A model generated the notes under the pieces. The model was not told the DNA's origin, ran no database searches, and was given only the letters and a program-made list of their open reading frames with translations. Shown here piece after piece: positions 2-13,674 of a stretch of DNA of 64,000 nt. A program made the translations under genes and the position numbers. This DNA comes from Capsulimonadaceae bacterium (GTDB lineage Bacteria > Armatimonadota > Armatimonadia > Armatimonadales > Capsulimonadaceae): assembly GCA_965215505.1 (NCBI GenBank), contig OZ244065.1, positions 5,824,001 to 5,888,000 of the forward strand, given 5' to 3'. The first letter of the stretch is position 1, and each line of letters begins with the position of its first letter.

Positions 2-580
2 GTAGACCCGGCGCACGTTTGGACCAATGCGGGCGCGCGGGTGGGGGACTCCTTGATCCTGACCAAGCCGCTCGGCGTCGGCGCAATCACGACCGGTATC
101 AAGCAAGGCGTCGCGCCTGCCGACGCCGTGGAAGCCGCCTTGACGTCAATGCGGACGCTCAACCGGGCCGCGCGGGACGTCGTGGCGACGGTCGGCCCGC
201 GCGCCTGCACGGACGTAACCGGGTTCAGCCTGCTCGGCCATTTGTACCAGATGCTCCGTGCGTCGGGCGTATCGGCCCGCGTCCATGCCAGCCAAGTGCC
301 ATTCCTGACTGGTGCGCTGGATTTGGCGCGTCAGGGCGTCAGTCCGGGCGGGGCGGGGCGAAACCGGGACTACTTCGCCGCGCACGTCACGGTCGCGGAG
401 GGTATTGAGGGGGCCATCGTGTCGCTGCTGTACGACCCGCAGACGTCGGGCGGTTTGCTGGTTTCGGTGGCGGGGGATAAGAAGAATGTTCTACTCGCCG
501 CGCTGACGGCGGCGGGCCTCTCGGCGGCCCATGTCGGGGACGTGACGGAGCCGTCTGCGGGCCGCGTTTTCGTAATATAG
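2..580 (+). CDS. selD: selenide, water dikinase (selenophosphate synthetase), 5'-truncated by window edge
   Basis: Frame open from base 2 (VDPAHVWTNAGARVGD..). SelD motifs LILTKPLGVG, TDVTGFSLLGH, DPQTSGGLL. Immediately followed by tRNA-Sec. Confidence 0.95.
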   Translation, partial: VDPAHVWTNAGARVGDSLILTKPLGVGAITTGIKQGVAPADAVEAALTSMRTLNRAARDVVATVGPRACTDVTGFSLLGHLYQMLRASGVSARVHASQVPFLTGALDLARQGVSPGGAGRNRDYFAAHVTVAEGIEGAIVSLLYDPQTSGGLLVSVAGDKKNVLLAALTAAGLSAAHVGDVTEPSAGRVFVI

Positions 581-582
581 AT

Positions 583-675
583 GGAGGCGTTTGGGGTCTG
601 GTGGCCCTCCTGGTCTTCAAAACCAGTGACCCGCATCACGCGGGTGGTGGGTTCGATTCCCATCCGCTTCCGCCA
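583..675 (+). tRNA. selC: tRNA-Sec (anticodon UCA)
   Basis: Acceptor GGAGGCG/CGCTTCC plus GCCA end; 6-bp D stem GGGGTC/GGCCCT; anticodon stem CTGGT/ACCAG with loop CTTCAAA (TCA at 617-619); long variable arm ACCCGC/GCGGGT; T arm GTGGG-TTCGATT-CCCAT. Confidence 0.97.
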
Positions 676-681
676 AACAAT

Positions 682-1545
682 ATGCTCCCCGAAAACACAC
701 AACAGTCTGGTACCGTCAAGACGATGCCCGTCGCGCGGCTGCGCGACGGGCATCTGGCTGAGGTTGATGACACGCTCGTCGTCGAGGAGCCGCTGGAGAT
801 TCGTCTGGGGATGGAGCGGTTCACGGTCACTATGCGGACGCCGGGCAATGACTTCGCGCTGACGCGCGGCCTGCTGCTGACCGAGGGCGTGATCGGCTGC
901 GAAGCCGACATCGGCCAGATCCGCTACTGCGATACGGGCGAGGCGGCGGACACGGACATTCCCAACATCGTCACCGTACAGCTCAAGACGCCGCCGCTGT
1001 CCGAGAAGCTCTGGCAAAGGACTTTGATGGCGGGGACGAGCTGCGGCCTATGCGGCAAGGCGGCCTTAGAGGCCGTCGGGATGCAGACGTGCCCGCTGCC
1101 GCCTCCTACTCTGCCCATGTTGAGCCGCGAGACACTGCTGTCGCTGCCGCATACACTGCGGCGTCATCAGGCGCTTTTCAAGCAAACGGGGGGCCTGCAC
1201 GCGGTCGGCCTGTTCGACGCAACGGGGGATTGCCGGTGCGTCTTTGAAGACATCGGACGGCACAACGCTACCGACAAGGCCATCGGCTTCGGTGTGGAGC
1301 AGGGCTGGCTTCCTTGGGAGGGTGCCGAGCCACTGATCCTGCTGGTCAGCGGCCGGGCCTCGTTCGAGATCACGCAGAAGGCGCTCATGGCCCGCATCTC
1401 CGTCGTCTGCTCCGTCTCCGCCGCCTCCACGCTGGCGGTGGAACTGGCCCAGGCCAACAACCAGACGCTGGTCGGCTTCCTGCGCGACACGGGCATGACG
1501 GTCTACACGGGCGGCAAACGGCTATCCCTCGCGCCCGATGCCTAA
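682..1545 (+). CDS. fdhD: formate dehydrogenase accessory sulfurtransferase FdhD
   Basis: Motifs [43 protein letters not shown]. The ORF-track start at 601 lies inside the tRNA, so ATG 682 (or 724) is used. Confidence 0.93.
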
Positions 1546-2251: not shown

Positions 2252-4336
2252 TCAGAGGAGGTGGCGGCTCAGAAACCGCTCGTAAAGCCCGCAGCGCGGC
2301 GCGGCTTCGCGCGGCGTGTTGCCGGTCACGACGCCCGCCGTCCGCAAGCGGAAGAATCTGTCCGGTTCCGGCGGCTTCCGGTCCCGCAGCAGGCCGCGCA
2401 GGCTTTCGGTCATCTGCGGATCCTGGGTGACGGAGATCAGCAAACGCCGCAGATGATCGCCGAATATCCCTTCATCCCGGTCCGCCCCCGCCTCCAGCGC
2501 GGCAAAGTCGAGGCCGGCCATGGCCATCTCGTTCAGGCCGCAGGCGCAAAGGGCAGGCTGTCCGCCGGTCAACGCCTGGAAGCCGGACAATTCCCGTGCG
2601 TTTCGGAGCGGGCTGCCGTGCCGTCGGTTCAGGTCCGCCACCTGGTCCGCCGTGAAGTCCAGCAGGAAGAGGCGCGTCCCCACGTTGAACGGGGATTGGT
2701 TGAGGTCCGAGATGAACAGGTGTGCCTCGGTGGCATAGGCGATGACAAGGGTGAGGCGGCTCCACGGGTCTGCCGGAACGAGGGTCCTGCGGTTGTGCCA
2801 GGAGCGGAAGAGGCCGAACACGTCGCTGCCGTAACCGCAGTGGAACAGGCGATCCACTTCGTCCAGACCCCAGACCAGCGGCGCGTCCAGCCGCTCCAGG
2901 ACTTCCCGGCGAAGGAACCGCTCGAAGTTCATGTTCGGACTCCGATACTCGCTCCAGGAAGCCGGGTCGTAATCCAGGCCGATCTCGTCGGCGATCATCA
3001 CGGTCAGACACCGGTAAAACGACTCCGGCGAGTGAAGGTATTCCGCGTTGAAGGTCTGCAAGTCCGTCAGGATAGTCCGGACCCCGGCGGCTCGGGCTTG
3101 GTGCAGCCCTCGCGCCAGCATCGAAGTCTTGCCGATCTGCCGGGAGCCTTTGAGCAGCACGATGCCATCCCGGCGGGCGATGGCCGCCCGGAGATCGTCG
3201 TCGGCGTCCCGGACGACATAGAAGGCAGAGTCGAGGGGGACGGCACCGCCGGCAGACCCGTGCCGCGGCGGGGCGGAAGGCTCCGGTTCGGGCGGCTTCT
3301 TCATTGCGGCATCAAGTTCTTTCAGCGCAGCGTCCAGGTCCGCCACGAGCCGCACATCGTCCTCGGGGCCGTTCCAGGCGATATACATCAGCGGATCAAG
3401 GATCGCGCCCAGCGATTGTGGCAAGGCTTCCGTGAAGGCGACGCGCACCGGCAGCAGGCGCGGCCGTCCTCCTCTTGCCCAGAGGGCGGCGTGGGCCGTT
3501 TGGACCTCGAACTCGAACATCTCACTGCGGACGGATGCTTCCGAAACGAGCACGATCACGGCCTGGGCGGATTGGATCTGCCTCTTGATCTCCGCCGCCC
3601 ACTCGACCCCGATCGCGATGTGCCGGTCGATGAACAGCGAATGGCCGTGGGCGCTCAGCTTGGAATCGAGAAGGGCCACGACCCCCGCATCCGGCGCGGC
3701 ATGACGCTTGTACAAGATGGCCACGCGCCCCGGCTCCGGCCCATCCTCTGCCACGACTTGCGGGACAAGTCTGTCCGGCAGACCGGTCTTACCAACGTCC
3801 GGCGTGTGGAAGTTGAACAGGCGCACCGTCGTCCCATGCTTGACCTCATACTCGCCTAGATAGGATAAAAAAGCGGCCCAGTTCTCATATTCGCTGATGA
3901 CGTCGGCGAAGCTATGGGACATGAGGATGTGGCCCGCATCTCCGAAGCCCATCACGCGCTCCGCGAGATTGATTCCGCTGCCGGAAACATTATCCTGTCC
4001 ATGAATGTCCGGCTGTCGGGTGACAGGGCCGCTGTGCAGTCCCATCCGCAGGGGCAGGTCCGGGCGCGTCCGCAGAGCGAGGGCGACTTCGCAGGCGCAC
4101 TGGAGCGGGGCGCGTGGGTCACGGAAGAAGATCAGCGCCAGGCCGTCCCCCTGGTCGCGGCAGATCAGGTCCCCCTCTCCCTCAGCGCGCCGGTATTCGG
4201 GGGTCTGCTGCACCCTCTCCCGGAGGCCCTGGACCTGCCGTGCCTGTGCCTCCATGGGCAGCCGGGAGTGGCCGACCAGGTCCATGAAAAGAACGTGGGC
4301 CATCTCCGTCGGGATTCGTGTCGGTTCGTCCGTCAT
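2252..4336 (-). CDS. class III nucleotidyl cyclase - TIR - AAA_35 (STAND-like) NTPase fusion
   Basis: Cyclase motifs VLFMDLVG, GDG, LRMGLHSGPV, GINLAERV. TIR-like segment AILYKRH..LFIDR..WAAEI..VIVLVSEASVRSEMFEFEV. Walker A GSRQIGKTS, Walker B WGLDEVD, and QSPFNVG typical of AAA_35. Confidence 0.85.
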   Translation of the reverse strand: MTDEPTRIPTEMAHVLFMDLVGHSRLPMEAQARQVQGLRERVQQTPEYRRAEGEGDLICRDQGDGLALIFFRDPRAPLQCACEVALALRTRPDLPLRMGLHSGPVTRQPDIHGQDNVSGSGINLAERVMGFGDAGHILMSHSFADVISEYENWAAFLSYLGEYEVKHGTTVRLFNFHTPDVGKTGLPDRLVPQVVAEDGPEPGRVAILYKRHAAPDAGVVALLDSKLSAHGHSLFIDRHIAIGVEWAAEIKRQIQSAQAVIVLVSEASVRSEMFEFEVQTAHAALWARGGRPRLLPVRVAFTEALPQSLGAILDPLMYIAWNGPEDDVRLVADLDAALKELDAAMKKPPEPEPSAPPRHGSAGGAVPLDSAFYVVRDADDDLRAAIARRDGIVLLKGSRQIGKTSMLARGLHQARAAGVRTILTDLQTFNAEYLHSPESFYRCLTVMIADEIGLDYDPASWSEYRSPNMNFERFLRREVLERLDAPLVWGLDEVDRLFHCGYGSDVFGLFRSWHNRRTLVPADPWSRLTLVIAYATEAHLFISDLNQSPFNVGTRLFLLDFTADQVADLNRRHGSPLRNARELSGFQALTGGQPALCACGLNEMAMAGLDFAALEAGADRDEGIFGDHLRRLLISVTQDPQMTESLRGLLRDRKPPEPDRFFRLRTAGVVTGNTPREAAPRCGLYERFLSRHLL

Positions 4337-6804
4337 TATCGCTTTTCGCTTTTGTGTGTAGGAAGAAGGTGTCCGAAGACGAGATCACCTGGCGAAGATG
4401 TGTTCACGTCTCCGGGTCTGATCGGCTGACCATGATCATCCCGACCATCGGGTCCGACACTGTAGAGCAGATAAGTATCTCCTATTGTGGTGTAGTGAAG
4501 AGGGGCACTCCAGACGGACTCGTCGTCGCTGTCAAAAGGATCATCGGGCAGGATCTTGAGGTAGGTTGGCTTAAGCTGGTAGAGGGTTTTCGGGTAGTGG
4601 CCTGATGCAAGGCGGTATGCTCTGAGTGCGGCAGCCATTAGAAGGAGCCTTGTCCTAGTCTCACTCGCCGTGTCAATTAGCCATAAAAAGCTTAGGGGGA
4701 GCGTGAAGCCGCTGCTGATCATACCGCCGGGTGCATCAGGTACAGTCACCTCCTTCCGCAAGGTAGAGCCATATTGGTTTTTGCGCGTCAGTTCAATGCA
4801 AGCGTCAGCATATTGTGTAACCTCTGCCATTGCAGCCCGCTTGCTGCTCGTCATGAGTTCCATCCTCACGCCCACTCGCACCCAGACGAAGGGTTCTGTA
4901 TCTTTGGGAAGTGTGGCGGACAATCCGGAATTTTCGTCCCATTTCCATTGATTCTCCCAGTGCCTCCTATAATAAGTGTCCCGCCAATGTGGACTGTCAA
5001 ACAGTGCCATAAGATCGCTCTCTGTCTGCCATTTGTCCTCTCGCAGGGTTTCCCAGAAGGGGAATCTTGTCTGAAAAAGAGATGTGAGGCGACCGGTCAC
5101 GGCGTTAGCCTGGGAGATGCTGAGGTGGCTAATGGTCTTCTCCAGCGCGCGCTGCCCGATTGCTTCAAAGGCCACTCCGATCTCCCGATTTACGAGGGGG
5201 CCATTTTCCATGACACGCTCACCGAGGGCAATGGCATCCAGGTCGCTCTGGGCGGCGGCCCCCCAGTCTCCACGGGAAATCCTTACTTGTCCTTCCAATA
5301 CCAGTAATCTAGCAAGTGAACGGTAGTCGGCCACAGCACTGTCCCACGCCATGTGTCGGAACCCGTGTACCAGCCCGAGACGCAGCCAATGCAGGGCTGC
5401 CGCATTACGCTGGACCATGTCAGCCTTGTCCTGCGGCGCTATGGGTTCGTCAGCCCCGGCGTAAGCCTCGTCGACTTCGGTCGCACTGGTAAGCGACCGC
5501 ATGGCATTTTCAAAGTCGTCATAGGCGTTTGGGACTGGAGCGGTGCGTTTTGGAATCGTAACGACCGGGTCACGATCAAGCCAGGCACCGCCGCCGAACC
5601 AAACGGTGCCGAGAAGCAGCACGGTAACCGCCAGGGTCCGCGAGACGCCTTTCCAGAAGGCGACTCGCTGCCGGCGCAGTTCCGCCCCCGGCATGACCGA
5701 TCTGATCCAGGCCCGGTCGAAGACGCGGGCGTAGATGCGGTTGCGGACCCGAAGGCATCCGGCCTCATCGCCTGCGATGCCGGACAGCCGCAGAAGACCT
5801 GCGCGCGGGTCGGCCTCGGCGCAGAGGATGCGCCGCCGGGAATACCGAAGGCGGCGATAGAAGTCCAGCAGGCCGGCCAGGTCCGTGTCACTCTCCAGCA
5901 GTCGGCGGCGGACGAATGCCAGATTGCCGTCCTGCTCCGGCGACTCCTGCGTGAAGAACAATGACCGGCACAGGCGGTCCACGTTCGGAGCCGCCCCCGC
6001 CGCCACGGCCTCACAGAGCCGCTGCGTGAGGTACGGGTGTCCCCCCGTCCAATACAGAACGCGCCGCAGCCGTCGGCTCCCCGTGCGCCGGTCCCGGCCC
6101 AGGCCGGCGGCGAGAGGAGCGGCTTCGTCGGCGGAAAAGTCTGTCAGCTCGATGCGCCGGCCGATGTTGAATGGCGTCGTTTTCGTGTCCTCAACGAGTT
6201 CCGCCGGCGAGGCCACACCCAGCATGCAGAACGTCAGGCGCGCGAGAGACGGGTCATGCGCCCGCTGATTGAAAAAGGCACGGACGGCGGCGAAGAACTC
6301 ATCGGTGGAGAAAGGCAGCGAGCGGACGGCATCTATCTCATCCACGAAGATGACGAGCGGGGAACTACAATCAGGGAGGACGACTTTGCGGATCACCAGC
6401 TCAAACCCCTGGAGGGGACCCCGCTGCCGGTTCCGATCCCAAAACCCCTCGATCTCGTCTTCCAGTCCCAACTGCTCGCCGAGCATGCTCACGAGGCCTT
6501 CGTACCACTGCGCGATGCTCACCTGCCGCCCGACGGTCGTCAGGTCCAGGATGGCCACACGCACCCCGGCTTCCTCAAGCCGCGCCTTCGTGCGGACCAT
6601 CAGCGAAGACTTGCCGACCTGCCGCGTGTCCAGGATATAGCAGAACTCACCCCGAAGGAGCGTCTGTAACAGGACGTCGTCCGCCTGCCGCTCGACGTAG
6701 GAGGGTGCGCCCGGATGGAGTGTCCCGCCGGAGACGAAAAAGGGGCCGGCGTTCTGGAATGGCTGCGAAAGAGAAGGGACCCCGGAATCTGTACTGGTAG
6801 GCAT
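4336..6804 (-). CDS. AAA_35 (STAND-like) NTPase - TM helix - extracytoplasmic helical domain with pseudopilin-like C-terminus
   Basis: GGTL..SYVERQAD, DTRQVGKSS, IFVDEID, TPFNIG, WTGGHPYLTQ. TM segment LAVTVLLLGTVWFGGG. C-terminal GHYPKTL..LPDDPF..LYSVGPDG. Stop overlaps the start of the next gene at 4336. Confidence 0.82.
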   Translation of the reverse strand: MPTSTDSGVPSLSQPFQNAGPFFVSGGTLHPGAPSYVERQADDVLLQTLLRGEFCYILDTRQVGKSSLMVRTKARLEEAGVRVAILDLTTVGRQVSIAQWYEGLVSMLGEQLGLEDEIEGFWDRNRQRGPLQGFELVIRKVVLPDCSSPLVIFVDEIDAVRSLPFSTDEFFAAVRAFFNQRAHDPSLARLTFCMLGVASPAELVEDTKTTPFNIGRRIELTDFSADEAAPLAAGLGRDRRTGSRRLRRVLYWTGGHPYLTQRLCEAVAAGAAPNVDRLCRSLFFTQESPEQDGNLAFVRRRLLESDTDLAGLLDFYRRLRYSRRRILCAEADPRAGLLRLSGIAGDEAGCLRVRNRIYARVFDRAWIRSVMPGAELRRQRVAFWKGVSRTLAVTVLLLGTVWFGGGAWLDRDPVVTIPKRTAPVPNAYDDFENAMRSLTSATEVDEAYAGADEPIAPQDKADMVQRNAAALHWLRLGLVHGFRHMAWDSAVADYRSLARLLVLEGQVRISRGDWGAAAQSDLDAIALGERVMENGPLVNREIGVAFEAIGQRALEKTISHLSISQANAVTGRLTSLFQTRFPFWETLREDKWQTESDLMALFDSPHWRDTYYRRHWENQWKWDENSGLSATLPKDTEPFVWVRVGVRMELMTSSKRAAMAEVTQYADACIELTRKNQYGSTLRKEVTVPDAPGGMISSGFTLPLSFLWLIDTASETRTRLLLMAAALRAYRLASGHYPKTLYQLKPTYLKILPDDPFDSDDESVWSAPLHYTTIGDTYLLYSVGPDGRDDHGQPIRPGDVNTSSPGDLVFGHLLPTHKSEKR

Positions 6805-6945: not shown

Positions 6946-8400
6946 CTAAGCCGGGTGTTTGAGATGGCTGAGTGCGGCCATCGCGGCGTAGTATCCCCCC
7001 ATGCCGTGGACGCCGCCGCCGGGCGGGGTGGCGGAGGAACACAGATACAGGCCGGGGACGGGCGTAGACCACGGCGTCCAGCGGGCGATGGGGCGGGTGA
7101 ACAATTGCCGCCAGTCCTGGATGCCGCCGTTGATGTCCCCGCCGATGTAGTTGGCGTTGTACCGCTCCATCGCCGACGGGCCGATGGTGTGCTTGGCGAG
7201 GATGCGGTCCCGGAAGCCCGGTGCGAACCTCTCGATCTGCGCCTCGATGCGGCCCGTCATGTCCACGGTGCAGCCGTTAGGGACGTGGCAGTAGGCCCAA
7301 ACGGTGTGCTTGCCATCGGGGGCGCGGGTCGGGTCAAAGAGGCTCTGCTGGGCCAGCAGGATGTAGGGCACGTCCGCGACCTCGCCGCGCGCCGAGGCCC
7401 GCTCGGAGCGGCTGAGTTCGGCCCGCGTCGCGCCCAAATGCACGGTCCCCGCTGAGGTCACTTCGGGCGACTTCCAGGGGACCGGGCCGTCCAGGGCATA
7501 GTCCAGCTTGAACGCCCCCATGCCGTAGCGGTAGCGGCCCAGCCGCGTCCGGTAGCCGGTGGGCAGCTTGTCCCCGGCGATCTTGACGAGCTGGCGGGGC
7601 GTGATGTCGCCCATGATGACGCGCGACGGCGGCAGGTCATCCAGCGACTTCACCTCCCGCCCCGTTTCCACCTTGCCGCCCAACGATTCCAGGTGCGCGA
7701 CCAGGGCGTCAATGATCTTCTGGGACCCGCCGCGCGGGAACGGCCAGCCGACCGCGTGGCCGGCGATGCCCAGCGCCATGCCAAAGGCGGCGCTCGGCGA
7801 CTGTTCCAGGGGCAGCATCGAGTGGGCGGCCATGCCGGAGAAGAAGCCCCGCGCCCGGCCCCCCCGGAACGCGGCTTCGGTCAAGGCTTGCGAGGACAGA
7901 ATCGCCTTCAGGCCGAACCGCGCCAGGCCGAACGGGTAACACGCCAGCCGCAGCGGCTCGCGCAGCGCCCTGGAAGTCTCCTCCCAATCGGGCACGAGCG
8001 GCCCCATCAGGCGCGTGTAGTTGTCGGCGTCCGCCCCCAGCGTCGCCGCCGTCTCTTCCACCGACTGGTACAAGAGTGCGGGCGGCCCGTCGTCAAATGG
8101 GTGTGCCAGGGCGGCGGGCGGCTGTATCCACTCCAGCCCATGCTTTTCGAGCGGCAGCGTCCGAAAGAACGGCGACCCGTAGCCGAGCGGGTGGATGGCC
8201 GAGCAGATGTCGTGCGTGAAGCCAGGCAGCGTCAGCTCCGCCGACCGGCAGCCCCCGCCGGGGGTGTCCTTGGCCTCGACCACGAGGACGGAATGGCCCT
8301 CCTGCGCGAACCGGATGGCGGCGGCCAGCCCGTTCGGGCCGGAGCCGATGACGACGGCATCATAGTCTTGTGCTGATGAGCGAGCAGCAGATGGTGTCAT
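6946..8400 (-). CDS. phytoene desaturase-like FAD-dependent oxidoreductase
   Basis: Rossmann motif VVIGSGPNGLAAA, HDICSAIHP, LCSSATPPGGGVHGMGG. Confidence 0.9.
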   Translation of the reverse strand: MTPSAARSSAQDYDAVVIGSGPNGLAAAIRFAQEGHSVLVVEAKDTPGGGCRSAELTLPGFTHDICSAIHPLGYGSPFFRTLPLEKHGLEWIQPPAALAHPFDDGPPALLYQSVEETAATLGADADNYTRLMGPLVPDWEETSRALREPLRLACYPFGLARFGLKAILSSQALTEAAFRGGRARGFFSGMAAHSMLPLEQSPSAAFGMALGIAGHAVGWPFPRGGSQKIIDALVAHLESLGGKVETGREVKSLDDLPPSRVIMGDITPRQLVKIAGDKLPTGYRTRLGRYRYGMGAFKLDYALDGPVPWKSPEVTSAGTVHLGATRAELSRSERASARGEVADVPYILLAQQSLFDPTRAPDGKHTVWAYCHVPNGCTVDMTGRIEAQIERFAPGFRDRILAKHTIGPSAMERYNANYIGGDINGGIQDWRQLFTRPIARWTPWSTPVPGLYLCSSATPPGGGVHGMGGYYAAMAALSHLKHPA

Positions 8401-8846
8401 GTCAAGTGTTCTAAATCGCTGAGGTCTTTCAGCCTGCCGCTGGCTTGCTTGTTGACCTTGAGGCTGTCCATGTCAATCACGTTTATGGGTACGCCGTCCA
8501 TAAGGATCACCTCGCGCTTCAGCCAGCAGTCAGTGAATTCTACGCCTGAGATGCTGGTAAGCAGTTCAATCCGCAATGGAGGGTTGCCCATGCGGATGAC
8601 ACGATCTGCCTGCAAAAATACCCCCACGGCGATATCGTCGCTTGAGAACCCGAAGCCGCGCAATGCAGCCGCCACTCCCTGTGCGTTGTCTTCGCTACGC
8701 GCTATCCAGATGTCCATGTCGCCCGTAGCACGGGGGTAGCCGTGGTGCCCGACCGCGTAGCCCCCGACCAGAAGATACTCAACGCCGTTCTCGTTCAACA
8801 ACTTCAAGAAATCTTTGAAGTCGGTCGGTAGAAGGATCGTAGCCAT
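8397..8846 (-). CDS. minimal nucleotidyltransferase (putative TA component)
   Basis: LVGGYAV..HGYPRATGDMDIW motif; C-terminal NKQASGRLKDLSD. Confidence 0.8.
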   Translation of the reverse strand: MATILLPTDFKDFLKLLNENGVEYLLVGGYAVGHHGYPRATGDMDIWIARSEDNAQGVAAALRGFGFSSDDIAVGVFLQADRVIRMGNPPLRIELLTSISGVEFTDCWLKREVILMDGVPINVIDMDSLKVNKQASGRLKDLSDLEHLT

Positions 8847-8991
8847 ACATCACCTGCCGCATCAATTCGAGCGCTTCCAGCCTTGCCTGGGGAGACTGGG
8901 TTTTCCAGTAGTCCGCCTCATCTGACGGGTCATGGAGCGAAACGATGGACAGGCTCGACTTGTCCATCTTTAGAGTATCACGCAGAGACAT
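8779..8991 (-). CDS. small partner protein of the nucleotidyltransferase (putative antitoxin)
   Basis: ATG 8991 with GGAGGA SD. Sequence MSLRDTLKMDKSS..DYWKTQSPQARLEALELMRQ; overlaps the NTase gene. Confidence 0.6.
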   Translation of the reverse strand: MSLRDTLKMDKSSLSIVSLHDPSDEADYWKTQSPQARLEALELMRQVMYGYDPSTDRLQRFLEVVERERR

Positions 8992-9589
8992 TTTTGTCCT
9001 CCCCGACTGCGCTGGGTTCGTCCAGGGAAACCTTGTCATAGACCTCCGATAGGGGCAGGGAGCAGCCGAGAGAGGGGAGGAACAGGCTGGCCGCCAGCCC
9101 CTCCACGGCCCTGAACTTCCAGGAACCATCGTCCTGCCGGACGTACTGCTCGACGCGCGCCTTGTTCTGGGAAACAAGGATGTACTCTTGCAGCGAGTCC
9201 AGCCGCCGATAGTGCGCCCACTTCTCGCCCCGGTCGTAGGCTTCCGTCGTGGGCGACAGCACCTCGAACAGCACCGTCGGGTTGATGATGCTGTTCTTGT
9301 CGAGCGGGTGCCGGTGCTGCTCCCCGCAGACGACCGACACGTCCGGGTGCGTCATCAGGCCCGACTGCATGATTGTCACGCGCAGGTCGCTGTTGAAGAC
9401 TTGGCACGGCTCGCGCTTGAGCAAGTTCCCCATCTCACGCCCTATGTTGTTACCGATGGCACTATGCTCAGGGCTGCCGCCTGCCATCGCGAAGATCTGG
9501 CCGGACAGGTATTCGCTCTTGAACTCGGAGGTTTTTTCCAGTTCTATGTACTGTTCAGGCGTGTAGAATGGAACGGGTTGGGCCGACAT
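8978..9589 (-). CDS. Uma2 (DUF820) family PD-(D/E)XK-like protein
   Basis: EYLSGQIFAMAGGSPEH, HPDVSVVC, FEVLSPTTEAYDRGEK, LQEYILVSQ. Confidence 0.9.
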   Translation of the reverse strand: MSAQPVPFYTPEQYIELEKTSEFKSEYLSGQIFAMAGGSPEHSAIGNNIGREMGNLLKREPCQVFNSDLRVTIMQSGLMTHPDVSVVCGEQHRHPLDKNSIINPTVLFEVLSPTTEAYDRGEKWAHYRRLDSLQEYILVSQNKARVEQYVRQDDGSWKFRAVEGLAASLFLPSLGCSLPLSEVYDKVSLDEPSAVGEDKNVSA

Positions 9590-9634
9590 ATTTATGCCTC
9601 AGTATTTGGCGTCATACAGCGGCTGCAAAGGGAG

Positions 9635-9769
9635 CCATGCCCTGAAGGGCACGGCTAACCGGCGCAGACGCCGAGAACTACCGCTTCGCGGCAGTGGGAA
9701 AAAGGTACTAGCCCCGCGAAGCGGTGCTTGTTGGCCGAAGGCCGTCTAGCCGTGCCCTTCAGGGCATGG
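9635..9769. repeat. REPIN/MITE-like palindromic element
   Basis: Perfect 23-bp terminal inverted repeats CCATGCCCTGAAGGGCACGGCTA (9635-9657 / 9747-9769), each itself a hairpin. Inner perfect 12-bp IR at 9680-9691 / 9714-9725. Confidence 0.85.
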
Positions 9770-9774
9770 TTTTC

Positions 9775-10158
9775 TTAGCACAATGCCAAGCTGTTCCACT
9801 CTGTCAGCTTCGCTTTCATCTGCGGCTCTGACCTGAAACCCACAAGTAGTTCATGGAGGAAGCCGTTGAAAATGCAAACCAGCGTCGGCGTAGTCAGCAC
9901 ATCCCATTCTCTTGCGAGCGGCCAATTTTGCTCCTGGTCAAGATCCATCGCGTAGAAGCGCAGGCTTGTGTGGCCCTCGCGCATTCGTTGCAGCCGGGCA
10001 TCAAGGCTCCGACTGGTTGGGTCCCAGACCGCCCAGAGTAGGATTACAATTACACAGCCGCTTCCAGCCGCCTGACTGAAGCTCTCTGCTTCAATGACTG
10101 GCAGAGACGGGACATACGTTTCCATGAAAGCAGCCTTATGGAACAAGTACCACGCCAC
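9775..10158 (-). CDS. thioredoxin-fold protein lacking CxxC
   Basis: WAVWDPTS at the WCxxC position; DLDQ..LAREWDVLTTPTL..F.NG matches the thioredoxin C-terminal pattern. Confidence 0.65.
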   Translation of the reverse strand: MAWYLFHKAAFMETYVPSLPVIEAESFSQAAGSGCVIVILLWAVWDPTSRSLDARLQRMREGHTSLRFYAMDLDQEQNWPLAREWDVLTTPTLVCIFNGFLHELLVGFRSEPQMKAKLTEWNSLALC

Positions 10159-10299
10159 TCATCGGCATTCCTGCATGATTCTCCCATAGATGATCATGCC
10201 GTCTTTCCGATTAACGGCGACAAAAAGAGGGTAGAAGCCGTAATAACCACCTGCAATATTCCCCAGTCCTTTTGAAAGTCGGAAAGGCATTCATCCACC

Positions 10300-13200
10300 A
10301 TGTTCAAACTGCCACTCTTCTCGTCCAGCGGCGGCGATGGGAAGAAGCGCCAGGCCCAGCCGTTCAGCCGGATGACGCAGCACAAGGAGTCGCGGCTCGA
10401 AGGCGCGACCGTGACCGAGAGCGTCTGCCCCTACTGTGCGGTCGGGTGCGGCCAGCACATCTACACCAAGGGCGGCCAGATCATTGACATCGAGGGCAAC
10501 CCGCACTCGCCGATCAATGAGGGGACGCTATGCCCAAAGGGCGCGAACGTCTTCCAGCTCGCCCGCAACCCGCACCGGGTCAAGCATGTCCTGTATCGCG
10601 CGCCCTATGCGACCGAGTGGGAGCGGAAGCCGCTGGAGTGGGCGATGGAACGGATCGCGCAGAAAGTCCACGACGCCCGCGAACGTGGCTGGACCGAGAA
10701 GGACGACCAGGGCCAGACGATCAACGCCGTCCGCAACATCGGAACGCTGGGCGGCGCGACACTGGACAACGAAGAGAACTACCTGATCAAGAAGCTGTTC
10801 ACGGCGGGGCTGGGAGTGCTTTCCGTCGAGAATCAGGCGCGCATCTGACATTCTGCTTCCGTGCCCGGTCTGGGCGCGACATTCGGCCGCGGCGCGGCCA
10901 CACAATACCAGCAGGATCTCGCCAACAGCGACGCCATTCTCATCATGGGTTCCAACATGGCCGAGGCGCACCCGGTCGGCTTCCGCTGGCCGATGAAGGC
11001 CAAAGCCAAGGGCGGCAAGATCATCCATGTGGACCCCCGCTTCACGCGCACCTCGGCGATGGCCGACCTGCACGTCCAGATCCGGGCTGGCTCGGACATC
11101 GCGTTTTTGGGTGCGCTGGTCAACTACGTCTTGACCCAAGAGCGCTGGTTTAAAGAGTATGTGCTGGCATATTCCAACGCTTCCACGATCGTGGACGAAC
11201 GGTTCCAGGATACGGAGGCGCTGGACGGCCTGTTCAGCGGCTACGACCCGGAAACACGCTCCTACGACCCTTCCGAGGGCTACTGGAGTTACAAGCAGCC
11301 GGAGGGCGAAGACAAAGGCGATGGCGACGCTCGCGGCAAAATGTCCGGCAACTCGAACGGAGTCCACGGGCCGGGCATCCAGGGCGGGGCCAGTACGCAC
11401 AACTCCCCCCAGGGCCAGTCCACGGAGTCCAAGGCCGGGTACATCGAGCGCGACGAGACTTTGCAGGACCCGAACTGCGTCATGCAGCTTTTGCGCCGCC
11501 ACTTCGCGCGCTACACGCCTGAGATGGCCGCCGACATCTGCGGCTGCACCCCGGAGCAGGTCATCAAAGTCGCCGAAACCTTGTGCGACAATTCGGGCCG
11601 GGAGCGCACCAGCGCCCTCGTCTACGCGGTCGGCTGGACCATGCACACGACCGGCGTCCAGATCATCCGCACGGCCAGCATCCTCCAGACTTTGTTGGGG
11701 AACATGGGGCGGCCGGGAGGCGGCATCATGGCCCTGCGCGGCCACGCCAGCATCCAGGGATCTACGGACATCCCGACGCTCTACGATCTGCTGCCGGGTT
11801 ACCTGCCCCAGCCGACTTCCGAGCCGTCGCACGATACGCTGGACTCGTATGTGAAATACGAGGGCCTGCCGACCGGCTATTGGGCCAACTTCAAGGAGTT
11901 CATCGTCAGCCTGCTCAAAGCCTATTACGGTGAGGCGGCCACGAAGGCGAACGACTTCTGCTACAACTGGCTGCCGCGTCTCGACGACGACTACTCGATG
12001 ATCCTGGCCTTCCAGCGTATGGCGAAGGGCGACTTTGAGGGTTACTTCCTGTTCGGCCAGAACCCCGCCGCCGGGTCGGTCAACGCCAAGGTCGTCCGCG
12101 AAGGCTTGCGGAACCTGGACTGGCTCGTCGTCGCCGACTGGTTCGAGACGGAGAGCGCCGTCTTCTGGAAGAACGACCCGACCGGGCCGCCGCCTGAGCA
12201 AGTAGCGACCGAAGTGTTCTTCATCCCGGCGGCTTCATCCCCGGAGAAAGAGGGGACGCTGACCAACACGCAGCGGCTCATCCAATGGCACGACAAGGCT
12301 ATTGACCCGCCGGACGACTGCCGCTCGGACCTGTGGTTCCTGTACAACCTGGGCAAGCGACTAAAAAAGCTGTATGAAGGCTCGACGCAGTCGAAAGACC
12401 AGCCCCTCCTGCACCTGACCTGGGACTACGATTACGATGAGCATCCACTGCTGCCGGACGGCACGTCGAGCCGCATCGAGGGCGAGCCGGACGCCTTGAA
12501 AGTGCTTCAGGAGATCAATGGCTACCACACGACCGAGGTAGACCCGGAGACTGGCAAGTGGAAATTGCTGTCGGGCTTCTCGGACTGCAAGGATGACGGC
12601 ACGACGGCCTGCGGCGGCTGGATCTATTCCGGCGTCACGCCCGCGCCAAATGTCAACCGCGCCCGCGACCGGGTCCGCACGCCGGACAACCCGCTGGACC
12701 CCAAATGGGGCTACGCCTGGCCTCATAACCGGCGCGTCCTGTACAATCGGGCCAGCGCGGACCCCGAGGGTAACCCCTGGTCGGAGCGCAAGAAGCTGAT
12801 CTGGTGGGACAAGGCCGAGAAGAAGTGGACCGGCGACGACGAGCCGGACTTTGAGCCGGACAAGGACCCCGCCTACCGCGCCCCCAAAGACGCCGTTGGG
12901 ATGAAGGCCATTGACGGCGATGCGCCGTTCATCATGCACCCGGACGGCCTGGCCTGGCTGTTCGCGCCCGGCGGGACTAAGGATGCGCCGCTTCCGACCC
13001 ACTACGAGCCGGTCGAGTCGCCAGTCCGCAACCTGCTCTACAATGCGACGCAGGACAACCCGACGACGCGCTATTTCGCCGACCTGCCGGGGAACCAATT
13101 GGCGCGCTACCCGGAGGATGATTTCCCGGTCGTCGCCTGCACCTTCCGGCTGACGGAACACTACCTGAGCGGCCCGATGTCGCGGTTCAACTCGTGGCTG

Positions 13201-13674
13201 AACGAGCTGATGCCTTCCATGTTCATCGAGATCGGCCCGGAACTCGCCGCCGAGCATGGCATTTCGAACGGGGACTGGATGACCTGCGAGTCGAAGCGGG
13301 CGAAGATCGAGGCCCGCGCCCTGGTGACGCGGCGCACCAAGCCGATGGTCATTGACGGCAAGACGATCCACCAGGTCGGCATCCCGTTCCAGTGGGGCTT
13401 CGCGGGCGAGGTGGTCGGCAGCAGCGCCAACGACTTGACCTCGCTCGTCGCTGACCCGAACGTGACGATGCACGAGGCGAAGGTCTTCGCCTGCCGCGTC
13501 CGCGCGGGCCGGGCCGACGACCAGCCGCGCGAGCCGACGGCGAAGATGGAGCAATGGGCTAACCGTGAGCCGGTCCCGGACACGCCTGCGGGCGCACAGC
13601 CCGAGGGCCATTTGGGGAGGCACTTGCGTCAGGACGGGCCGACCATCGGCCCCGTAGAGAAGAAGCAACCATGA
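10300..13674 (+). CDS. fdnG: formate dehydrogenase alpha subunit, selenocysteine-containing (UGA at 10846-10848)
   Basis: CPYCAVGCG..LCPKG Fe-S motif. ENQARI-TGA-HSASVPGLGATFGRG is the conserved Sec site; ORFs 10300..10848 and 10861..13674 are in frame. Molybdopterin motifs AEAHPVG, LRGHASIQG, RLTEHY. Confidence 0.95.
10846..10877 (+). promoter_or_regulatory. SECIS element of the FDH alpha subunit
   Basis: GTGCCC-GGTCT-GGGCGC hairpin beginning 12 nt after UGA, with a G-containing apical loop. Confidence 0.85.

Follow-up and report, generated by a model that had tools for sequence, protein, structure and literature searches.

In NAIP-NLRC4 and in the paired and helper nucleotide-binding leucine-rich-repeat receptors (NLRs) of plants, such as RRS1/RPS4 and the NRC network, two paralogous NTPases of the signal transduction ATPase with numerous domains (STAND) type act as sensor and output, and activation proceeds through co-assembly of their NTPase modules. 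A comparable division of roles is proposed here for two adjacent genes of a Capsulimonadaceae bacterium (phylum Armatimonadota), located in a window of 64,000 nucleotides that represents the whole stretch of DNA analysed (assembly GCA_965215505.1, contig OZ244065.1, positions 5,824,001 to 5,888,000; coordinates below refer to the window unless stated otherwise). Gene 1 encoded a putative membrane receptor and gene 2 a putative output protein with a nucleotide cyclase and a TIR domain, each associated with an NTPase of the AAA_35 family (Pfam PF14516; gathering cut-off of 27 bits). In contrast to NAIP-NLRC4 and the paired NLRs, the sensor is here predicted to span the membrane once and to expose its sensing domain on the non-cytoplasmic side, a cyclase and a TIR domain are joined in the output, the binding of the two proteins to each other is a prediction, and the NTPase is AAA_35 rather than NACHT or NB-ARC, so that the gene pair is not a member of the NLR families. 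The two genes probably form one split, NLR-like transmembrane signalling device, with an estimated probability of about 0.6.

The nearest precedent found in print was the nSTAND2 operon (Kaur, Iyer, Burroughs and Aravind 2021, eLife, PMC8195603), presented in the passages concerned as a mobile two-gene operon encoding two STAND cores predicted to form a hetero-multimer, one partner having eroded NTP-binding motifs and carrying GT4 or HEPN effectors. Compared with nSTAND2 as described in those passages, both partners of the present pair retained the G-K-[ST] and D-E-x-D motifs and neither was eroded, one partner was a transmembrane receptor, and the outputs in the family were TIR, cyclase, kinase and SARP (Streptomyces antibiotic regulatory protein) domains. 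The same passages report N-terminal TIR and other effectors in STAND NTPases of the "MNS clade", given there as the family Npun2340/2341. The initial annotation, made from the letters of the window, knew of no characterised system with this architecture; the literature searches agreed, as no paper was found on the pairing of a membrane receptor with an output protein through AAA_35, supplementary tables being outside the search and an earlier mention therefore possible, and the gene pair was not mentioned in the main-text passages of Kaur et al. 2020 or of the 2026 Nature STAND survey (PMC13581612). That claim has nevertheless to be narrowed, since a paired STAND operon, nSTAND2, has been predicted in print (PMC8195603, in the passages cited above).

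Pycsar/Pucsar, to which the locus had initially been likened, likewise unite a class III-type cyclase with a TIR domain in one system. In Pycsar/Pucsar, the cyclase is encoded apart from the TIR protein, and the latter contains a domain binding cyclic nucleoside monophosphates (cNMP), whereas gene 2 joins both to an NTPase in a single chain. No cNMP-binding domain was detected by Pfam in gene 1 or gene 2 and no Pycsar system was matched by PADLOC, and the analogy was not supported.

Gene 1 and gene 2 were the only AAA_35 genes in the source genome (one contig, 6.18 Mb), and they represented two classes of this family. Gene 2 matched PF14516 over positions 4-330 of the hidden Markov model (HMM) with 230 bits (residues 364-690; 4e-68), and gene 1 over HMM positions 4-244 only, with 105 bits (residues 27-268; 5e-30), both above the cut-off. 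In a survey of 201 Armatimonadota genomes with PF14516, the family was found in 38 genomes, with up to 11 copies in some of them, and in none of the seven other genomes of the source genus. Among the 150 matches listed, 73 were full-length and high-scoring, in frames of ~450-900 aa as for gene 2 (class A), and 77 were partial (HMM positions 4-245) and located at the start of frames of ~1000-1600 aa (class B, to which gene 1 belongs). The divide between the classes, 140 bits, was set after both groups had been seen, and was later confirmed by class-specific HMMs on 42 class-A and 42 class-B genes from 40 fetched phylum loci, selected for holding pairs. The gene 1 module scored 568 bits with the class-B HMM and 116 bits with the class-A HMM.

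The two classes were co-located, as indicated by the gene-neighbourhood survey that the initial annotation had suggested. In the phylum, a class-B match was located on the same contig, at no more than 12 kb, for 47 of the 73 class-A matches, and 42 of these 47 pairs shared a strand. More than half of the pairs (28/47) were arranged tail-to-head, their NTPase domains being separated by under 300 nt; in two pairs class A preceded class B at a distance of 300 to 3500 nt, and five were on opposite strands. Metagenome contigs scanned with the class-A alignment A1 (see below) yielded 80 loci with 86 TIR-bearing class-A genes, 72 of which had a class-B neighbour; for 63 of the 86, the class-B gene was directly downstream on the same strand, with a gap of at most 350 nt. 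No class-B neighbour was found for 14 of the 86, five of which had less than 600 nt of downstream sequence. Moreover, the pairwise distances among class-A modules and among class-B modules were strongly correlated across 92 pairs (r = 0.87; maximum of 500 permutations, 0.24), and this co-divergence indicates long-term joint inheritance of the modules, compatible with co-evolution. A natural fusion was also found (P0391, 1896 aa), which contained, in one chain, a kinase, a class-A module, a class-B module, a transmembrane segment and WD40 repeats; the search for fused forms returned three proteins, of which one was informative, and so small a number makes for weak evidence. Overall, the pairing of the two AAA_35 classes as sensor and output is well supported by comparative genomics.

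The order of the genes differed between the two samples. Cyclase-bearing class-A genes were located downstream of the receptor in 9 of 11 fetched phylum loci (L071-L079, L044, L047, L060), whereas TIR-bearing class-A genes were upstream of it in 63 of the 86 metagenome cases (L082-L161), an order differing from that of the phylum. In five loci (L044, L076, L105, L113 and L119), two or three class-B genes came after a single class-A gene, or A-B units were repeated in tandem. As several loci hold one class-A gene with multiple class-B genes, one output protein may serve several receptors.

Gene 2 had more than 1000 relatives, the best 119 of which shared 47-56% identity with it and all carried TIR_2 and AAA_35. 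Its conservation was assessed on an alignment of 70 full-length relatives (A1), from which an AlphaFold2 (AF2) model was also obtained (mean predicted local distance difference test (pLDDT) = 91.5), with three domains resolved by superposition with VIA-align. For the N-terminal domain, the Pfam match to Guanylate_cyc (residues 91-168; 17.4 bits) was under the cut-off of 21.9 bits. The profile of the 70-member family matched solved class III cyclases (3mr7, 1.7e-11; Rv1900c, 5.8e-10), and the domain superposed on Ma1120, Rv1264 and Rv1900c with Z between 19 and 20, a root-mean-square deviation (rmsd) of ~2 Å and ~158 aligned residues. D19, D64, N123 and R127 were invariant in 70/70 relatives and aligned with the solved class III cyclases, where the first two positions presumably hold the two metal-binding Asp and the last two the transition-state Asn and Arg. 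The class III assignment is therefore secure despite the sub-threshold Pfam score. A role of the domain as a dead, cyclase-like adaptor was also considered and was rejected because these four catalytic-core residues are all invariant. The same cyclase subfamily (~50% identity) also heads many other signalling proteins, including fusions with TPR, kinase, PD40 and NB-ARC domains.

The TIR domain of gene 2 was recognised by Pfam (TIR_2, residues 212-323; 2e-16), and in the model it superposed on the TIR of SPARTA over 138 residues (Z = 17.9). When the region was searched against the Protein Data Bank (PDB) as a single sequence with phmmer, only chance matches were returned, whereas a seven-sequence profile matched the TIR domains of RPP1, SARM1 and 7xoz. 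E277, in the motif SEMFEFEV, was invariant in 70/70 relatives. When the HMMER alignment to the RPP1 TIR was extended without gaps, E277 fell on the Glu that is taken here to be the catalytic Glu of plant TIRs. With a TIR fold in the model and a conserved Glu in the alpha-C helix, the domain looks catalytic and of the NADase type.

The Walker A (G402-K403-T404) and Walker B (D492-E493-x-D495) motifs of the class-A module were invariant in 70/70 relatives. The 334-residue module superposed on the archaeal Walker ATPases PABY2304 (2qen; Z = 21.5, 309 aligned residues) and SSO1545 (2fna; Z = 20.4, 303 aligned residues) and on CED-4 (Z = 17.9, 290 aligned residues), its best structural matches, with 12-15% identity. 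The module has therefore the features of a STAND NTPase (NOD module): both Walker motifs, and superposition on CED-4 and archaeal STAND-like ATPases. Unlike the gene pair, 2qen, 2fna and CED-4 have no paired partner, transmembrane receptor, or TIR or cyclase domains. The best Foldseek match of the whole gene 2 model was the resistosome of the TIR-NLR RPP1 (7dfv/7crc; E = 2e-11 over 558 columns), with which it shared a TIR domain directly N-terminal to the NTPase and the Glu at the catalytic position; compared with RPP1, gene 2 had no leucine-rich repeats or C-JID in its chain, an additional N-terminal cyclase, and an identity of 12-13%. This resemblance of the TIR-NTPase part of gene 2 to RPP1 is in line with the pairing of sensor and output drawn in the initial annotation.

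For gene 1, 4687 relatives were found at E ≤ 1e-3 among 8000 scored. Its Walker A (G64-K65-S66) and Walker B (D155-E156-x-D158) motifs were invariant in 57 class-B sequences (alignment A3). The single hydrophobic segment that follows the module has RRQR..K..R ahead of it and DRD behind it, in agreement with an N-in, C-out orientation, which would place the module in the cytoplasm and the remainder of the protein outside. A search of 1.84 billion representative proteins with the C-terminal 418 residues gave 7872 matches at E ≤ 1e-3, mostly to stand-alone proteins 400-460 residues long and anchored at the N-terminus; in one match the domain was fused to a BlaR1-type M56 sensor protease (P0321). 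In an AF2 model from 60 sequences (pLDDT = 90), helices occupied model positions 23-330 and preceded a small beta domain. The latter, corresponding to the C-terminal 117 residues at the end of this larger protein, resembled the pseudopilins EpsG (4lw9; Z = 7.5, rmsd 3.3, 98 aligned residues, 22% identity) and PulG (5wda; Z = 6.6, rmsd 2.1, 84 aligned residues) by VIA-align, and matched T2SSG with 15 bits, under the 21-bit cut-off, which some relatives exceeded. For the helical part, VIA-align ranked designed helical repeats and proteins resembling TPR highest, at Z ~8, an unspecific level common for helical repeats, and Foldseek returned no match to the whole outside domain in the PDB at E ≤ 1e-3.

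Two stand-alone paralogues of this outside domain were found in tandem elsewhere in the source genome, outside the window (G000:C1:5973810-5976359, L163-L165; ~450-500 aa each, 35-37% identity). They are surrounded by leuS, the gene of a sigma-70-type factor and unknown genes, which provided no clue to a ligand.

The anatomy of both genes is given in Table 1 together with that of their surroundings. Base 4336 is common to the TAA of gene 1 and the ATG of gene 2, i.e. a one-base overlap (minus strand CGATAATGACG). A scan for promoters and terminators found nothing over shuffled expectation within or upstream of the gene pair, and NCBIfam provided no family-level name for it. The initial description of the locus thus held for its parts: the open reading frames, the sequence and Pfam agreed on two overlapping minus-strand genes with a TAATG junction at 4336 and an AAA_35 NTPase in each, one hydrophobic segment corresponded to the transmembrane helix expected in the first gene, and the class III cyclase and the TIR domain with its Glu were recovered in the second. 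The predicted extracytoplasmic helical domain was modelled as a helical repeat and completed by the pseudopilin-like domain.

Table 1. Features of the gene pair and of neighbouring genes, with positions in the window.
Feature	Position	Strand	Basis
Gene 1 (P0002), 822 aa, class-B AAA_35 receptor (putative)	4336..6804	-	Open reading frame, translation, Pfam
Class-B AAA_35 module of gene 1, residues 15-385, predicted cytoplasmic	5650..6762	-	Alignment A3, class HMMs
Single transmembrane helix of gene 1 (predicted), residues 391-409, N-in/C-out by charge	5578..5634	-	Kyte-Doolittle 1.75
Extracytoplasmic alpha-helical repeat of gene 1 (predicted), ~residues 427-705	4690..5526	-	AF2 model
C-terminal domain of gene 1 resembling pseudopilins (GspG/EpsG/PulG), ~residues 706-822	4339..4689	-	VIA-align, weak T2SSG
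TAATG stop/start overlap of gene 1 and gene 2	4334..4338	-	Sequence read
Gene 2 (P0001), 694 aa, class-A output protein (putative), cyclase-TIR-AAA_35	2252..4336	-	Open reading frame, translation, Pfam
Class III nucleotide cyclase domain of gene 2, residues 5-180; D19, D64, N123, R127 kept	3797..4324	-	Profile, alignment, model
TIR domain of gene 2, residues 199-344, invariant E277	3305..3742	-	Pfam TIR_2 2e-16, PDB profile, model
Class-A AAA_35 module of gene 2, residues 358-691	2264..3265	-	Pfam, model
selD 3' end	2-580		AIRS_C
tRNA-Sec	583-675		Anticodon TCA
fdhD	~700-1545		
FAD-dependent oxidoreductase	6946-8400	-	
Small nucleotidyltransferase-like protein	8397-8846	-	Weak DUF2204
Uma2-family putative endonuclease	8978-9589	-	
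Formate dehydrogenase alpha subunit	10300-13674		In-frame TGA at 10846-10848

The architecture of the receptor recurred across class B. A transmembrane segment directly followed the module in 91 of 120 database relatives, and one was present after the module in 35/40 paired phylum genes and 58/62 metagenome genes. The domains predicted outside were variable: WD40 repeats were found in 37 of the 40 phylum pairs, whereas of the 60 metagenome partners of TIR proteins 22 carried PEGA/CarboxypepD_reg and 16 WD40, and TPR, LolA-like, FGE-sulfatase and PAS domains were found in other class-B relatives. From these architectures, class B is nearly always a candidate receptor composed of an NTPase, a transmembrane segment and a variable outside domain. 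Two class-B modules per chain, split by a multi-pass LptF/LptG-like permease domain, were also observed in some class-B proteins (P0126, 1303 aa; L091:4479-8312), which represent another, membrane-embedded form of the receptor.

Class A, judged from its domain composition, is the carrier of swappable outputs, comprising SARP DNA-binding heads, TIR, cyclase and kinase. The heads in the 42 phylum pairs were BTAD (19), TIR_2 (15), Trans_reg_C (10), Guanylate_cyc (9), HTH_3 (2) and Trypsin_2 (1), and among the best 119 relatives of gene 2 a Ser/Thr kinase replaced the cyclase in nine and a SARP head was added in five. Pairs with these outputs are present in Armatimonadota and in metagenomes, including TIR, cyclase and kinase members. 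In the pairs examined, no sensor domain was found on class A and no output domain on class B. The sister pairs with BTAD and OmpR-type winged helix-turn-helix (wHTH; Trans_reg_C) heads on the class-A NTPase resembled AfsR-type "large SARP" regulators, which are, like MalT, single-chain STAND activators combining a DNA-binding head, an NTPase switch and a repeat sensor. In contrast to AfsR and MalT, the pair family has its sensor on a second, membrane-spanning protein, and the output of gene 2 is a cyclase-TIR.

Since transcription-factor heads (BTAD in 19/42, and HTH) prevailed over TIR in the sister pairs, the term "executor" used initially for the second gene does not fit the family, and a general signalling role is somewhat more likely than dedicated phage defence, although the TIR-cyclase members could be the conflict arm of the family. 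A dedicated anti-phage or abortive-infection TIR-STAND system, in which the envelope would be monitored, the TIR would deplete NAD+ and the cyclase would provide an accessory signal, is considered rather unlikely. The invariant Glu at the catalytic position and the RPP1-like order of TIR and NTPase are in line with such a system, as are the variable sensor domains, the patchy distribution described above (38/201 genomes of the phylum and 0/7 congeners, with up to 11 copies per genome), the location at a synteny break with Uma2 nuclease-like and nucleotidyltransferase-like genes nearby, and the placement of MNS-clade STAND NTPases with N-terminal TIR among counter-invader systems in the passages of PMC8195603. 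However, the SARP/HTH DNA-binding heads of most sister pairs are regulatory rather than lethal, the flanking genes are housekeeping genes (selD, tRNA-Sec, fdhD and the FAD oxidoreductase), and the sensors are predicted to lie outside the cytoplasm, whereas known bacterial STAND defence senses phage proteins intracellularly according to PMC13581612. No PADLOC system model matched the gene pair either: gene 2 had only TIR-domain matches and a weak PDC-S01 P-loop match (3e-4), without any defence STAND system (Avs, bNACHT), gene 1 matched none of the families, and Thoeris was represented only by a sub-threshold ThsB match (E = 0.062). By Pfam, no SIR2, Macro or SLOG domain, as expected of the Thoeris effector ThsA that accompanies ThsB, was found in the scanned proteins of the window between 1 and 13.7 kb, smaller open reading frames not being covered.

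The interaction of the two NTPase modules was addressed by complex prediction, another step proposed in the initial annotation. The modules of gene 1 and gene 2 scored 0.55, compared with 0.00 for the best of three controls, which provides weak support for an interaction: 58 of 80 solved complexes attained this mark, as did 2 of 110 mismatched pairs, but the passes with a score of 0.60 or under comprised only seven of the 80 solved complexes and both of the mismatches that passed. At least 84% of the contacts agreed between runs, and the partner pLDDT was at least 83. As both chains are homologous AAA-type modules, the pass is only a hint and may reflect likeness to solved oligomers. The initial claim of a hetero-oligomeric sensor/executor pair was supported in part, as a conserved sensor/output pair, by co-location, co-divergence and fusion; the hetero-oligomer is a prediction, and the word "executor" was dropped.

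The mechanism proposed for the pair, including hetero-oligomerisation, the direction of the signal, the enzyme products and the biological trigger, is a model built on these observations. Gene 1 would be a single-pass membrane receptor with a cytoplasmic NTPase and with its helical-repeat and pseudopilin-like domain outside, and gene 2 a soluble output protein with a cyclase and a TIR on a paralogous AAA_35 NTPase; neither would be complete alone, because gene 1 has no output and gene 2 no sensor. A ligand or a change in the envelope at the outside domain would be relayed through the transmembrane helix to the class-B module, which would switch to an NTP-bound, assembly-competent state and could then nucleate, recruit or co-assemble with the class-A module, in the manner of NAIP and NLRC4. 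Dimers are the active form of class III cyclases and self-association is required of TIR NADases, and the resulting proximity may thus produce catalytic cyclase dimers and an NAD-cleaving TIR assembly. The outcome would be a cyclic-nucleotide signal and/or an NAD-derived signal, or a loss of NAD.

Extended to the family, this model would define a large undescribed class in which a single-pass receptor signals by nucleotide-dependent AAA_35 co-assembly rather than phosphotransfer, with outside sensors such as WD40, PEGA, TPR and pseudopilin-like domains and swappable outputs such as TIR, cyclase, Ser/Thr kinase and SARP/HTH. Such a class would be a split NLR working as a "two-component system" that ties extracellular sensing to TIR chemistry. 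This generalisation is plausible but tentative.

Several findings weigh against the split signalling device. The receptor-first order seen in the window was in the minority (12/47 phylum pairs and 2/72 metagenome pairs). In the phylum, 26 of the 73 class-A matches had no class-B match within 12 kb, some of their contigs being only a few kb long by coordinates, and in the metagenomes nine of the 86 class-A genes were unpaired despite at least 600 nt of downstream sequence. On genome contigs, only one of six TIR-AAA_35 loci had a partner (L005), with three of the six ending at a contig edge, while L003, flanked by 7 kb on either side, and L007, with 2.4 kb of sequence downstream, were orphan class-A genes. 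The A-B fusion is a single metagenome record, and co-divergence is no proof of contact because it is expected of any co-inherited genes. The sole interaction test was the weak in-silico pass described above, and the transmembrane helix and topology of gene 1 were derived solely from hydropathy and charge. Finally, the canonical substrate-specifying residue, Lys for ATP or Glu for GTP, was not found in the cyclase of gene 2: the Lys of Ma1120 aligned with R60, where the family consensus is Leu, and consequently the cyclase product cannot be named.

Part of these findings would also fit two co-regulated proteins that do not co-assemble, each AAA_35 forming homo-oligomers and adjacency reflecting only duplication and shared regulation. 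Besides the orphan class-A genes (L003, L007 and 9/86 in metagenomes), 26 of the 77 class-B matches had no class-A match within 12 kb, the Walker motifs are complete in both NTPases, so that each could work alone, and the complex score is weak. It is however improbable that the proteins act without co-assembly, as class A has no sensor and class B no output and neither is complete alone, and as the tight tail-to-head arrangement (gap of at most 350 nt for 63/86 class-A genes), the natural A-B fusion P0391 and the module co-divergence (r = 0.87) also argue for a joint function. A split device whose modules co-assemble remains the preferred reading.

The pair family is widespread and apparently unstudied, and it probably carries outside signals to swappable inside outputs. 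If the modules co-assemble, the family would give bacteria an equivalent of sensor/helper NLR pairs with the sensor placed across the membrane, and would represent a new principle of signal transmission beside two-component, extracytoplasmic function (ECF)-sigma and Ser/Thr-kinase pathways. A role would thereby also be provided for the thousands of "AAA-like domain" proteins of soil and freshwater bacteria that lack annotation (>4600 class-B and >1000 class-A relatives). In the cyclase-TIR version, TIR enzymology would be controlled by an extracellular cue, which is relevant to the wiring of TIR signalling before the emergence of immune receptors in plants and animals.

On one side of the gene pair, the window possessed a selenium-utilisation set composed of the selD 3' end, tRNA-Sec and fdhD. 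With the GTG at 601 that is listed as its start, fdhD overlaps tRNA-Sec, and homologues matched only from ~residue 35. The formate dehydrogenase alpha subunit, ~9 kb from fdhD, is predicted to be a selenoprotein because of its in-frame TGA (motif ...ARIUHSASV). In four congeners (G112, G130, G103 and G121), fdhD and formate dehydrogenase were ~117-800 kb apart, compared with ~9 kb here with the gene pair between them, which suggests that the pair lies at a rearrangement point; the synteny test with these four genomes showed no clean insertion, the flanking fdhD and formate dehydrogenase being simply far apart. The source genome is 1.7-2.6 Mb larger than those of its congeners. Upstream of the pair, the FAD-dependent oxidoreductase gene overlaps that of the small nucleotidyltransferase-like protein by four bases, and the Uma2-family putative endonuclease follows. 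The GC content drops to 0.56-0.60 around 4000-5500 and 8000-10500.

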